From a virus, in UHGV virus genome UHGV-0163678: a stretch of DNA of 17,995 nt; one strand, given 5' to 3'. Below the pieces are notes generated by a model that was given only the letters and a program-made list of their open reading frames with translations, made no database searches and was not told the origin of the DNA. Made by a program: the position numbers and the translations under genes. Positions 6,659-14,553 of this stretch are shown one piece after another (the stretch's first letter is position 1; each line of letters opens with the position of its first letter).

Positions 6659-7036
6659 ATGGACGAATCAAGAAAGCAGTTTGAAGAAAGTTGGTTGCGA
6701 CGTGGAGGCGAATCATCAGACCTTATCCGTTACCCTGAAAATCACCATGAAATTGGCAGTGGTGATATTGGTGGTCAATACGTGATGGACGATGTTCAAG
6801 GCCACTGGCAAACGTGGCAGGCATCGCGAGCAGCTATTGAACTGGATATCGACTGGCCCGAATCGAATGACGACTTTTGGAAAGATGGTGAAGAAGGTGC
6901 TTATGCGATGGGGCATGAGGATGGGAAGGACAAAACGGTAATTGCAGTGATGAAAGCTATCAGAGCCGCTGGAATTAAAGAGAAGAATTTCGATGAAGCA
7001 AATATACATACTTCGCAACGAAGCAATCAGAAATAA
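6659..7036 (+). CDS. Hypothetical protein
   Basis: 125-aa acidic ORF; overlaps the ninB start by 44 nt. Confidence 0.45.
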   Translation: MDESRKQFEESWLRRGGESSDLIRYPENHHEIGSGDIGGQYVMDDVQGHWQTWQASRAAIELDIDWPESNDDFWKDGEEGAYAMGHEDGKDKTVIAVMKAIRAAGIKEKNFDEANIHTSQRSNQK

Positions 7037-8136: not shown

Positions 8137-8498
8137 CAATGGATTATTCACAGTTAAGTGATTTTGAAATTAACGTGGCGGTATTCGAAGCCATTCATAA
8201 CGGATCACCGGATTACAAAGAAGGTGAGAATGGCGATATGGTGTTTGTCTCATTTGATGGAGACATTGTAAACGGAGACGCAGTTGAAGTAGAAGTTGAG
8301 CGCGGATCATTTAACCCATGCGTAAACCCAGCAGACGCATGGCCGATTATTGAAAAATACAGGATTAGCATTATCAATCTCGATGAAGACGAGTGGGGTG
8401 CACGCGGTGTGGCCTACTGTAAATCTAAGCGAGCTATACATGAAAATCCCCTCCGCGCCGCCATGATTGTCTTTCTCATGATGCAGAGAATCCAATAA
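8133..8498 (+). CDS. Hypothetical nin-region protein
   Basis: ATGA overlap with the ninE stop; about 121 aa from ATG 8133. The ORF-track start at 8097 is an upstream alternative. Confidence 0.5.
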
Positions 8499-8674
8499 TG
8501 CTTAGTCCATCCCAATCCCTTCAATACCAGAAAGAAAGCGTCGAGCGAGCTTTAACGTGCGCTAACTGCGGTCAGAAGCTGCATGTGCTGGAAGTTCACG
8601 TGTGCTCAGATTGCTGCGCAGAACTGATGAGCGATCCGAATAGCTCAATGTACGAGGAAGAAGACGATGGCTAA
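8498..8674 (+). CDS. ninF: NinF
   Basis: 58 aa, [36 protein letters not shown]..., matching lambda NinF as recalled. Found by manual translation, below the ORF-track cutoff. Confidence 0.7.
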   Translation: MLSPSQSLQYQKESVERALTCANCGQKLHVLEVHVCSDCCAELMSDPNSSMYEEEDDG

Positions 8675-9233
8675 ACCAGCGCGAAGACGATGTAACCGTA
8701 AAAGAGAAGATTTAACTGTTAAAAGGATATTTGAGTTACTAAGTTTCGATAAATCCACCGGGGTATTTAGATGGAAAGTTCCCACTCAGGGAAGGATATC
8801 ATTAAATAGTATTGCTGGAACTTTTGATTCCAACGGTTATTCAATGATCATGATAGATGGGCGTAGATATAAAACTCACGTCTTAGTTTTTTACATAACT
8901 CATAATCGTTGGCCTGCTGGTCAAATTGACCACGTTAATGGAATTAGGACCGACAATAGGCCAGAAAATTTAAGAGAATGCCTGCCAATAGAAAATTCAA
9001 GAAATATAAGGATCCGAAAGAATAGCAAATCAGGTTGCAGAGGAGTTACTTGGCACAAACGACAGAAAAAATGGAATGTTAGGCTAGGTTTCCATGGCAA
9101 GAGTAAACACTTCGGATGCTTTGATGATCTGGAGTTAGCGGTACTAGTTGCTGAAGAAGCCCGAGATAAGTATTACGGTGATTTTTCCGGCAACGAAAGG
9201 AGCACTTATGCGAATCTATCGAAGGAAATGTAA
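8667..9233 (+). CDS. HNH homing endonuclease with AP2-like DNA-binding domain
   Basis: HNH signature ([17 protein letters not shown]) and an AP2-like segment ([33 protein letters not shown]). Markedly AT-rich by eye. Its N-terminus MAKPARRRC mimics the lambda NinG N-terminus as recalled. Confidence 0.8.
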
Positions 9234-9810
9234 ATGTTGCAATGAATGGTTTATACCAAAATATCAAAATCAATATTGGTGTAATGAGATTTGTGGAACC
9301 AAGATAGCACTCGAACGACGAAGCAAAGAACGCGAAAAAGCGGAAAAGGAAGTAGAGAAGAAACGACGACGAGAGGAGCAGAAACAGAAAGATAAACTTA
9401 AGATTCGAAAACTCGCCTTAAAGCCCCGCAGTTACTGGATTAAACAAGCCCAACAAGCCGTAAACGCCTTCATCAGAGAAAGAGACCGCGACTTACCATG
9501 TATCTCGTGCGGAACGCTCACGTCTGCTCAGTGGGATGCCGGGCATTACCGGACAACTGCTGCGGCACCTCAACTCCGATTTGATGAACGCAATATTCAC
9601 AAGCAATGCGTGGTGTGCAACCAGCATAAAAGCGGAAATCTCGTTCCGTATCGCGTCGAACTGATTAACCGGATCGGGCAGGAAGCAGTAGACGAAATCG
9701 AATCAAACCATAACCGCCATCGCTGGACTGTCGAAGAGTGCAAGGCGATCAAGGCAGAGTACCAACAGAAACTCAAAGACCTGCGAAATAGCAGAAGTGA
9801 GGCCGCATGA
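9208..9810 (+). CDS. ninG: NinG (Rap-like) with a re-built 5' end
   Basis: From about residue 30 onward, near-identical to lambda NinG as recalled ([18 protein letters not shown] ... [11 protein letters not shown]). New ATG at 9208 with an AAGGAG Shine-Dalgarno at 9198..9203; the first ~30 codons are recoded and AT-rich. Confidence 0.75.
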
Positions 9811-10013
9811 CGTTCTCAGTAAAAACCATTCCAGACATGCTCGTTGAAGCATACGGAAACCAGACAGAAGTAGCACGCAGACTGAAATGTAGTCGTGGTA
9901 CGGTCAGAAAATACGTTGATGATAAAGACGGGAAAATGCACGCCATCGTCAACGACGTTCTCATGGTTCATCGCGGATGGAGTGAAAGAGATGCGCTATT
10001 ACGAAAGAATTGA
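9807..10013 (+). CDS. ninH: NinH
   Basis: 68 aa, [49 protein letters not shown]..., matching lambda NinH as recalled. Confidence 0.8.
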
Positions 10014-12712: not shown

Positions 12713-13141
12713 ATGAATATGGCGACTGAACCAAAAGCTGGTCGCCCCTCTGATTATATGCCGGAGGTGGCTGACGATATCTGCTCGTTGCTTTCTTCTG
12801 GCGAAAGTTTGCTGAAAGTATGTAAGCGTCCTGGTATGCCGGATAAGTCCACTGTTTTCCGCTGGCTGGCAAAGCATGAGGATTTTCGCGACAAGTACGC
12901 GAAGGCAACTGAGGCACGAGCTGATTCTATTTTCGAAGAGATATTCGAAATTGCTGACAATGCGATTCCAGATGCTGCTGAGGTGGCAAAGGCAAGACTT
13001 CGCGTTGATACCCGCAAATGGGCGCTGGCCCGAATGAATCCCCGTAAGTATGGCGACAAGGTAACTAACGAACTTGTCGGCAAAGACGGCGGCGCAATCC
13101 AGATTGAAACATCACCGATGAGCACTCTATTCGGAAAATGA
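12713..13141 (+). CDS. Terminase small subunit
   Basis: 142-aa ORF immediately upstream of, and overlapping, the large terminase gene, directly after the lysis cassette. Confidence 0.65.
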   Translation: MNMATEPKAGRPSDYMPEVADDICSLLSSGESLLKVCKRPGMPDKSTVFRWLAKHEDFRDKYAKATEARADSIFEEIFEIADNAIPDAAEVAKARLRVDTRKWALARMNPRKYGDKVTNELVGKDGGAIQIETSPMSTLFGK

Positions 13142-14553
13142 CCTCGATTAATCCTATCTTTGAACCGTTCATTGAGGCGCATCGCTACAAAGTCGCCAAA
13201 GGCGGTCGAGGTAGCGGTAAATCATGGGCAATTGCGAGGCTGCTTGTTGAGGCGGCGCGTCGGCAGCCTGTGCGTATTCTCTGCGCTCGTGAACTGCAAA
13301 ACAGTATCAGCGATTCGGTAATCCGGTTGCTTGAAGACACCATAGAGCGGGAAGGGTATTCGGCTGAGTTTGAAATTCAGCGTTCAATGATCCGTCATCT
13401 CGGAACGAATGCTGAATTCATGTTCTACGGCATAAAAAACAACCCTACGAAGATTAAATCGCTCGAAGGCATTGATATCTGCTGGGTGGAAGAAGCGGAA
13501 GCGGTAACAAAGGAATCGTGGGATATCCTGATACCAACCATCCGCAAGCCGTTTTCCGAAATATGGGTGAGCTTTAACCCGAAGAACATACTCGACGATA
13601 CCTATCAGCGATTCGTTGTAAATCCTCCCGATGATATTTGTCTGCTGACGGTGAACTACACCGACAATCCGCATTTTCCTGAAGTTCTCCGTCTGGAGAT
13701 GGAAGAGTGTAAACGCAGAAACCCGACACTGTATCGTCACATCTGGCTTGGTGAGCCAGTAAGCGCAAGTGATATGGCAATCATCAAACGTGAATGGCTT
13801 GAAGCCGCAACCGATGCGCACAAGAAACTCGGATGGAAAGCGAAAGGCGCTGTTGTCTCTGCGCATGACCCATCAGATACAGGGCCAGATGCTAAAGGTT
13901 ATGCATCGCGTCACGGTTCGGTAGTTAAGCGCATTGCCGAAGGTCTGCTGATGGATATCAACGAGGGTGCTGACTGGGCAACTTCGCTGGCGATTGAAGA
14001 CGGCGCTGACCACTACCTGTGGGATGGTGATGGTGTTGGTGCTGGGCTACGCAGACAGACAACGGAAGCGTTCTCCGGCAAGAAAATCACCGCCACGATG
14101 TTCAAGGGCAGCGAATCGCCATTCGATGAAGATGCACCATATCAGGCCGGAGCATGGGCCGATGAAGTCGTACAGGGCGACAACGTTCGCACTATTGGTG
14201 ATGTGTTCCGCAATAAGCGAGCACAATTCTATTACGCGCTGGCTGACAGGCTGTATCTGACATATCGGGCGGTTGTTCACGGTGAGTATGCAGACCCCGA
14301 CGACATGCTGAGTTTCGACAAAGAAGCGATAGGCGAGAAGATGCTGGAGAAGCTGTTTGCAGAACTGACGCAGATTCAGCGCAAATTCAATAACAACGGG
14401 AAGCTTGAGCTAATGACTAAGGTCGAAATGAAGCAGAAGCTCGGTATTCCATCTCCTAACCTGGCTGATGCGCTGATGATGTGTATGCATTGCCCGGAGT
14501 CGGCTGCGCAACCCGACTATTCCAGTTACTCAATTCCTTGTGGTGTAGGTTGA
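13138..14553 (+). CDS. Terminase large subunit (ATPase and nuclease)
   Basis: 471 aa. Walker A motif near the N-terminus (AKGGRGSGKS), acidic Walker B-like WVEEAEA, and a C-terminal domain with conserved acidic residues. Confidence 0.9.
   Translation: MTSINPIFEPFIEAHRYKVAKGGRGSGKSWAIARLLVEAARRQPVRILCARELQNSISDSVIRLLEDTIEREGYSAEFEIQRSMIRHLGTNAEFMFYGIKNNPTKIKSLEGIDICWVEEAEAVTKESWDILIPTIRKPFSEIWVSFNPKNILDDTYQRFVVNPPDDICLLTVNYTDNPHFPEVLRLEMEECKRRNPTLYRHIWLGEPVSASDMAIIKREWLEAATDAHKKLGWKAKGAVVSAHDPSDTGPDAKGYASRHGSVVKRIAEGLLMDINEGADWATSLAIEDGADHYLWDGDGVGAGLRRQTTEAFSGKKITATMFKGSESPFDEDAPYQAGAWADEVVQGDNVRTIGDVFRNKRAQFYYALADRLYLTYRAVVHGEYADPDDMLSFDKEAIGEKMLEKLFAELTQIQRKFNNNGKLELMTKVEMKQKLGIPSPNLADALMMCMHCPESAAQPDYSSYSIPCGVG

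Follow-up and report, generated by a model that had tools for sequence, protein, structure and literature searches.

Homing endonucleases that join an N-terminal HNH nuclease to a C-terminal AP2 domain form a known class (PMC5714182; PMC10448857), belonging to His-Me finger group 2 (Magnani et al. 2004, cited in PMC5714182) and including the 'IPA-HNH' genes of ICP1 (PMC10448857). Here we describe a candidate member of this class in UHGV virus genome UHGV-0163678, of which a stretch of 17,995 nucleotides, hereafter the window, was analysed. The window is part of a P22-like Escherichia coli phage or prophage and contains a P22-type portal gene, Terminase_3, the cI, O and primase-helicase genes and the nin genes. 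Between ninF and ninG lies a 188-amino-acid open reading frame (ORF) that probably belongs to a free-standing HNH-AP2 homing endonuclease cassette seated within the 5' end of the lambdoid phage gene ninG (rap). Its best reading is that of a cassette active now or recently, with cleavage and homing that we infer from sequence comparison.

The closest described enzymes are I-HmuI and the HNH_3-AP2 endonucleases, with which the ORF shares the nuclease motif, the domain architecture and a phage-borne gene without its own promoter; I-HmuI is the best match in both structural and profile comparison. However, I-HmuI is encoded in an intron and the ninG cassette nuclease is not; the I-HmuI-like/AP2 group is found in virulent phages, whereas the cassette resides in temperate lambdoid phages and its nuclease is less than 50% identical to any other family member. 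The free-standing seg and mob endonucleases of T4, which undergo intronless homing, are likewise promoter-less riders on operons that overlap their neighbours for translation, and the likeness would extend to spread by break repair with flanking homology and to immunity through differences in target sequence (PMC2988022). The seg and mob genes usually lie between genes, whereas the ninG cassette lies inside an ORF and has taken its start codon. Insertion into a coding sequence, along with some device that saves the host function, is also known from T4 mobA with gene 39/60 and from Aeh1 mobE in nrdA (PMC2988022). In those two cases the host gene ends up as two polypeptides, whereas ninG would be made whole by a spare 5' end brought in with the cassette. 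Gene 60 is itself read by translational bypass, and the e14 element and phage 21 integrate into icd while supplying a substitute gene end. The icd elements resemble the ninG cassette in that a mobile element enters coding sequence with a diverged replacement end and the gene stays functional, but they use integrase-mediated site-specific recombination and replace a 3' end, whereas at ninG a nuclease cassette replaces a 5' end. One earlier case is on record of an HNH homing endonuclease capturing a start codon in the same way, that of gene 31 of the P22-like phage epsilon34, at a different locus, in a different HNH lineage and with no rebuilt copy of the host gene reported (PMC2629481). We found no published cassette in which a spare 5' end both restores the host ORF and removes the target, and no description in the literature of an HNH or homing gene in ninG or of the insertion in the two Shiga toxin 1 (Stx1) phages that carry it, the first search being noisy because 'ning' matches personal names. 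The nuclease gene itself is routinely annotated; the spare-5'-end design, which we did not find described, is apparently a variation on a known kind of mobile gene.

The insertion was delimited by aligning the window with the insert-free phages lambda, Sf101 and IME10 and with the insert-bearing Stx1 phage AU6Stx1. The match to the insert-free phages runs to position 8695 (ATGGCTAAACCAGCGCGAAGACGATGTAA) and restarts at 9292 (TGTGGAACCAAGATAGC...), with 596 nucleotides (8696-9291) in place of 64 nucleotides (codons 10-31) of lambda-type ninG and no long co-converted tract visible. The gene order is ninB, dam, ninX, ninF (8498-8674), the 188-amino-acid ORF (8667-9233), ninG (9208-9810), ninH, a phosphatase gene and Q. 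The features of the locus are as follows.

8498-8674, plus strand: ninF (Pfam NinF, 8.3e-14), whose stop TAA at 8672-8674 overlaps the ATG at 8667 (ATGGCTAA).
8654-8666, plus strand: last 13 nucleotides of ninF (GAGGAAGAAGACG), ribosome-binding region, from alignment and upstream comparison.
8667-8695, plus strand: captured ninG start, comprising the ATG, codons 2-9 (together MAKPARRRC) and 2 nucleotides; left homology arm.
8667-9233, plus strand: predicted HNH-AP2 endonuclease ORF, 188 amino acids, stop TAA at 9231-9233, from the ORF call, Pfam, the structural model and profiles.
8682-8695 and 9220-9233, plus strand: imperfect 14-nucleotide direct repeat (CGAAGACGATGTAA and CGAAGGAAATGTAA), the second copy of which holds the nuclease stop codon.
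8696-9291, plus strand: AT-rich segment of 596 nucleotides with the nuclease body and the new ninG start region, from alignment and GC content.
8868-9005, plus strand: HNH (beta-beta-alpha-metal) motif, residues 68-113, with D88, H89, N101 and N110, from Pfam HNH_3 (residues 68-107), conserved columns and the I-HmuI alignment.
9030-9185, plus strand: AP2-type DNA-binding domain, residues ~122-173, from a Pfam match below cutoff, the family profile and Foldseek.
9197-9202, plus strand: Shine-Dalgarno sequence AAGGAG of the rebuilt ninG, 5 nucleotides before the ATG at 9208 and within the 3' end of the nuclease ORF.
9208-9291, plus strand: replacement ninG 5' end, 28 codons, GC 0.28, from sequence comparison.
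9208-9810, plus strand: rebuilt ninG (rap), 200 amino acids, from Pfam NinG and PHROG 171.
9292-9810, plus strand: lambda-type remainder of ninG, right homology arm, from alignment.

The nuclease ORF thus begins at ninG's own ATG and keeps ninG codons 1-9 in frame. An initial annotation, made from the sequence of the window, had recognized MAKPARRRC as the N-terminus of lambda NinG, and the 29 nucleotides at 8667-8695 are indeed identical to the ninG start of lambda, Sf101 and IME10. The overlap of the ninF stop with the next ATG also occurs in lambda and Sf101, and the usual ninF-ninG coupling would now serve the nuclease gene. The same nuclease ORF is called by the annotation pipeline PGAP in E. 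coli E2863. Its TAA falls 26 nucleotides inside the new ninG, in a different frame, and ninG restarts at the ATG at 9208 with its own Shine-Dalgarno sequence, as had been proposed. The AT-richness reported from about 8690 to 9300 was also borne out: GC content is 0.34-0.43 over 8700-9300 versus ~0.50 in the flanks, with 0.39 in the nuclease body and its lowest value in the new ninG 5' end. In RefSeq, lambda NinG starts one codon before the Sf101/PGAP start MAKPARRRC (L002:1133-1138; NC_001416 42429), and cassette copies retain only the second of lambda's two ninG start ATGs.

Other kinds of insertion were considered and rejected. The 14-nucleotide repeat is not a target-site duplication, since its copies are the homologous codons 5/6 to 9/10 of the two ninG starts; no terminal inverted repeats were found at the cassette, and a transposon or insertion sequence was dismissed for want of these, of a target-site duplication and of a transposase. 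No Rfam match at E <= 1 was found within 8300-9900, and an intron or intein is further contradicted by the nuclease ORF ending in its own TAA and by ninG restarting in another frame.

The protein encoded by the 188-amino-acid ORF is predicted to be an I-HmuI-like HNH nuclease with a C-terminal AP2 DNA-binding domain, in agreement with the initial annotation. Pfam HNH_3 matches it at E=4.4e-11 (42.7 bits versus a curated cutoff of 24.8) and PHROG 99, 'HNH endonuclease', at 2e-71. For the single sequence, Pfam AP2 stays below its cutoff (E=1.8e-4, 22.2 bits, cutoff 33.3), but a family profile compared with solved AP2 domains matches WRI1 at 5e-12, TEM1 at 8e-7 and ERF1 at 2.5e-3; the same profile matches I-HmuI at 1.2e-7, in an alignment that spans the VDHKDG...NLR...N of I-HmuI. 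In the family alignment of 18 sequences D88, H89, N101 and N110 are conserved, so that the HNH catalytic residues are present, and distant homologues all start at about residue 14-17 of the window protein; MAKPARRRC is therefore foreign to the nuclease family. An AlphaFold (AF2) model built from the family alignment has a mean pLDDT (predicted local distance difference test score) of 83.7 with residues 1-12 disordered, and its top Foldseek match is the homing endonuclease I-HmuI (1u3e), followed by DNA-bound AP2 domains (AtERF1, root mean square deviation 1.3 Å over 51 columns). The nearest other nucleases, 44-47% identical, are encoded by free-standing HNH genes, of which one lies in a T7-like contig, flanked by endonuclease I and a second gene, and among the species representatives of GTDB there is one relative, 39% identical, in a Planctomycetota metagenome-assembled genome.

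The rebuilt ninG is full length by its family model. Its product matches Pfam NinG (PF05766) at 6e-85 over model positions 5-192 of 193 and PHROG 171 at 1e-120, and from residue 29 onwards 167 of 172 residues are identical to those of Sf101 NinG, which upholds the earlier view that ninG has been kept intact. That view had included near-identity to lambda NinG after about 30 recoded codons. A divergent start followed by near-identity from 9292 is present, but the divergent codons number 28 and they do not look recoded: their peptide is identical to that of lambda at 18 of 35 amino acids and two codons shorter, the nucleotide divergence from lambda-type ninG is ~40% while the adjoining sequence is 97-99% lambda-like, and the four-cysteine pattern (CxxC...CxxxC) is kept, with the CxxC spacing of phage 2851 NinG. 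The 28 codons are a diverged homologous ninG 5' end and not a synonymous recoding. It is extremely improbable that they instead evolved in place, within a lambda-type ninG, to escape self-cleavage, because such a divergence, with a two-codon deletion and 17 of 35 amino acids changed, directly abuts nearly unaltered lambda-like sequence; a GC content of 0.28 fits a foreign low-GC source like that of the nuclease body and not local drift, and the CxxC spacing is one found in other natural NinG types. What speaks for evolution in place is that no cassette-free NinG with such an N-terminus emerged from the searches for a donor: with the N-terminus as query, tblastn against 50,697 phage records gave a best non-cassette match of ~60%, a word-indexed search of 5.8 billion proteins brought up nothing beyond fragments linked to the cassette and N-termini of lambda type, and HMMER, run exhaustively on 1.84 billion cluster representatives, gave only one identical 26-amino-acid fragment. 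In these searches the replacement 5' end turned up solely in linkage with the nuclease gene.

The fusion at the nuclease N-terminus and the AT-richness of the spare 5' end suggest an earlier position of the nuclease gene, upstream of a low-GC homologue of ninG. From there, we conjecture, it entered a lambda-type ninG, its left end joined illegitimately and in frame, its right end by homologous crossover. Because no donor was found, this scenario of origin is offered as conjecture. Two further ninG variants were seen. An E. coli protein of 65 amino acids (P0033) is a NinG with the cassette-type start that changes over to lambda-type WWCSP ahead of a frameshift, as if a crossover had taken place inside the 28-codon replacement tract. 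In AU6Stx1-type ninG an in-frame 9-nucleotide duplication (GAAAAGGCA, extra AEK) lies ~70 nucleotides downstream of the right junction (L001:2200-2215; alignment columns 869-877).

At a single defined site, otherwise homologous genomes either carry the cassette or lack it. With the 611-nucleotide segment 8690-9300 as query and a threshold of >=95% identity, the cassette was found in 538 of 5,426 complete E. coli genomes, at 571 places that are all chromosomal and number up to three per genome; 512 E. coli records match it at >=99%, and everywhere PGAP labels it with the pair 'HNH endonuclease' and 'recombination protein NinG'. The nuclease protein cluster has 464 members; E. coli accounts for nearly all of them, Salmonella for a few. 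In the phage collection the Stx1 phages AU6Stx1 and SH2026Stx1 are the sole carriers, and IMG/VR holds 57 close copies with flanks, in prophage contigs. Insert-free alleles are likewise plentiful: the empty lambda-type ninF-ninG junction occurs in 925 E. coli genomes, in lambda, Sf101, IME10 and HK446 and in at least 80 IMG/VR loci, and the empty site is almost invariant across 83 IMG/VR loci. Carrier and empty-allele IMG/VR genomes share no genome identifier among the matches listed. The comparative data fit a mobile cassette, as the initial annotation had supposed, but its arrival in the window is not the recent event then envisaged, since the allele is widespread (the 538 E. coli genomes above, and an IMG/VR locus, L030, that is nearly identical to the window).

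Some individual records deserve mention. In IMG genome 2690316149 two prophage contigs (L012 and L067) both carry the cassette, in different upstream contexts. In three cassette-bearing loci (L001, L048 and L059) ninG, ninH and Q are followed by stxA1, which starts ~1.7 kb downstream of the nuclease gene; of the three, only L059 has the ninF-type context upstream. GenBank MW057783.1 ('Campylobacter phage CJLB-4', 48,361 bp) is 97.4% identical to the ninF-ninG flanks, with coverage, positions and length near those of lambda, and is probably lambda DNA deposited under another name.

Around the cassette we distinguished at least seven upstream and at least seven downstream context classes in at least 12 combinations, and the junctions, both within coding sequence, are the same in all copies. 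The commonest class is without ninF, yet it keeps the last 13 nucleotides of ninF and ninG codons 1-9; in these ninF-less prophages the remnant reads GAGGAAGAAGGCG, and among 55 copies a two-haplotype pattern is seen at 8647-8664. Because the ninF end and codons 1-9 are retained even where ninF is missing, the constant and putatively mobile unit would span ~8654-9291 and consist of the ninG ribosome-binding region and nine codons fused to the nuclease, the nuclease body, and a Shine-Dalgarno sequence, ATG and diverged 28-codon 5' end that rejoins the resident ninG in frame. One change in the ninF-less remnant (8654-8666; L001:1505-1517) turns GAGGA into GGAGG, a better Shine-Dalgarno sequence. 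In the commonest context (35/60 loci, including the Stx1 phages) the upstream gene is an opposite-strand ORF of 590 amino acids with no Pfam or PADLOC match (L009:1647-3419, minus strand; the same gene in AU6Stx1 is NC_049921 16420-18192). Within the phage collection the upstream DNA of this context occurs in AU6Stx1 and SH2026Stx1 only, and no cassette-free version of it was found there.

Diversity among the copies indicates that the cassette has moved. Across 55 copies, the nuclease body has a nucleotide diversity of 0.0044 and the new ninG 5' end one of 0.0020, compared with 0.026-0.075 in the adjoining ninG; synonymous diversity (piS) is 0.014 in the cassette against 0.059-0.10 in adjoining ninG, that is, 4-7 times lower. 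The ratio of nonsynonymous to synonymous diversity (piN/piS) of the nuclease ORF is 0.14, and the ORF is under purifying selection. On a neighbour-joining tree of the shared ninG 3' part from 55 carriers and 84 non-carriers, presence of the cassette is polyphyletic and requires 14 changes; identical ninG haplotypes are found both with and without it, and 9296-9670 holds no fixed difference between the two groups. Taken together, the low diversity, the selection, the changes on the tree and the lack of a fixed site show that the cassette is younger than the ninG alleles carrying it, that selection maintains its protein and that it has been put into different backgrounds more than once, with crossovers near its ends.

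The same data were weighed against a passive mosaic module, inserted once, no longer homing and spread by ordinary lambdoid recombination and clonal lysogens. We regard this as unlikely, given that the cassette is younger than its carriers by synonymous diversity, that its nuclease is still under selection, that two junctions in coding sequence are identical in all copies and that ~10% of complete E. coli genomes contain it, even though pervasive lambdoid mosaicism, context classes that switch within a few hundred bases on both sides, the degradation of some copies and the lack of a visible long co-conversion tract would all accord with passive spread. Several points do weigh against an active homing cassette. 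Lambdoid phages are highly mosaic, and a module could become scattered across contexts by general recombination alone; the comparison of carriers with non-carriers is biased by the choice of the latter for similarity to lambda NinG, and few differences underlie the neighbour-joining tree. Decay of some copies is seen in an IMG/VR locus (L064, IMGVR_UViG_2526164629_000012) in which a 1-nucleotide deletion at window-equivalent 8887 frameshifts the nuclease, in the protein fragment P0003 and in the singleton changes N97T and N101S. No relatives of the nuclease between 98% and 47% identity were found that would trace the route of the cassette's arrival. Finally, the presumed target site is placed from the replaced segment alone.

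We propose the following mechanism for a homing cassette, of which these parts can be read from the sequence: transcription within the nin operon, the captured start, the absence of the target and the remaking of NinG. No plus-strand promoter-like site was found for the nuclease gene, which would share the nin operon's transcription from pR in lytic growth or upon induction and be translated from the captured, ninF-coupled ninG initiation region. Nicking or cutting and copying by repair we infer. The enzyme may nick or cut cassette-free ninG in or near the 64 nucleotides that the cassette replaces. Nicking is typical of I-HmuI-like HNH enzymes. T4 MobA and MobE as well as I-HmuI are nickases (PMC2988022). 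The break would be repaired from a cassette-bearing genome and the cassette thereby copied in, with a left arm of ~42 nucleotides or more (the ninF end and ninG codons 1-9) and the rest of ninG as the right arm. Arms of such length suffice for Red-type recombination. Carriers would be immune because their target is split and replaced by a sequence of ~60% nucleotide identity with a 6-nucleotide deletion; the 42-nucleotide empty-site sequence is missing from the window even with up to 3 mismatches allowed, and the occupied allele is without an empty site. The phage would lose nothing, as NinG is remade with its cysteine tetrad.

A nuclease kept for the benefit of the phage and not for its own copying, for instance by harming competing lambdoid phages or prophages or by promoting recombination along with NinB/Orf and NinG/Rap, seems very unlikely to us. 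Purifying selection, a place in the nin recombination gene cluster and up to three copies per genome are what such a role would lead one to expect, and homing-endonuclease-like HNH genes can have phage functions, for example as terminase partner in HK97 (PMC10448857). Most lambdoid phages, however, do without the gene; it does not adjoin the terminase gene, and no PADLOC defence model matches the nuclease. Moreover, the exclusion of competitors by cutting empty ninG would employ the biochemistry of homing and is hardly a separate mechanism. A terminase partner of the HK97 gp74 type was rejected on position, the large terminase gene (13138-14553) lying ~4 kb off, past Q and the lysis genes, and a known defence-system protein for want of any PADLOC model. 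Elsewhere in the window, a 125-amino-acid ORF at 6659-7036 (plus strand), just upstream of ninB, matches no Pfam family at E <= 1e-5.

A homing cassette at ninG could also have wider effects. It is possible, if quite unlikely, that it is an actively driving element whose gene conversion occasionally carries the adjacent late-regulatory region along into other prophages (ninH and Q, joined in Stx1 phages by stxA1 ~1.7 kb downstream), and that start capture with a spare 5' end is a general, unnamed route into ORFs. If this were true, a homing endonuclease would help to move Shiga-toxin or Q modules between the lambdoid prophages of one cell.

In summary, most of what is known of homing endonuclease biology comes from virulent phages such as T4, SPO1 and ICP1, and the ninG cassette offers a candidate in the lambdoid temperate phages, the best genetic system, where it occurs commonly in prophages of E. 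coli, Stx1 phages among them. Besides introns or inteins and split genes, it would represent a third harmless way into an ORF, in which the start of the host gene is taken and a replacement 5' end restores the gene and destroys the target. If active, the cassette would cause directed gene conversion among co-resident prophages at a level that could be measured, and the main value of the finding is that it is directly testable in lambda.

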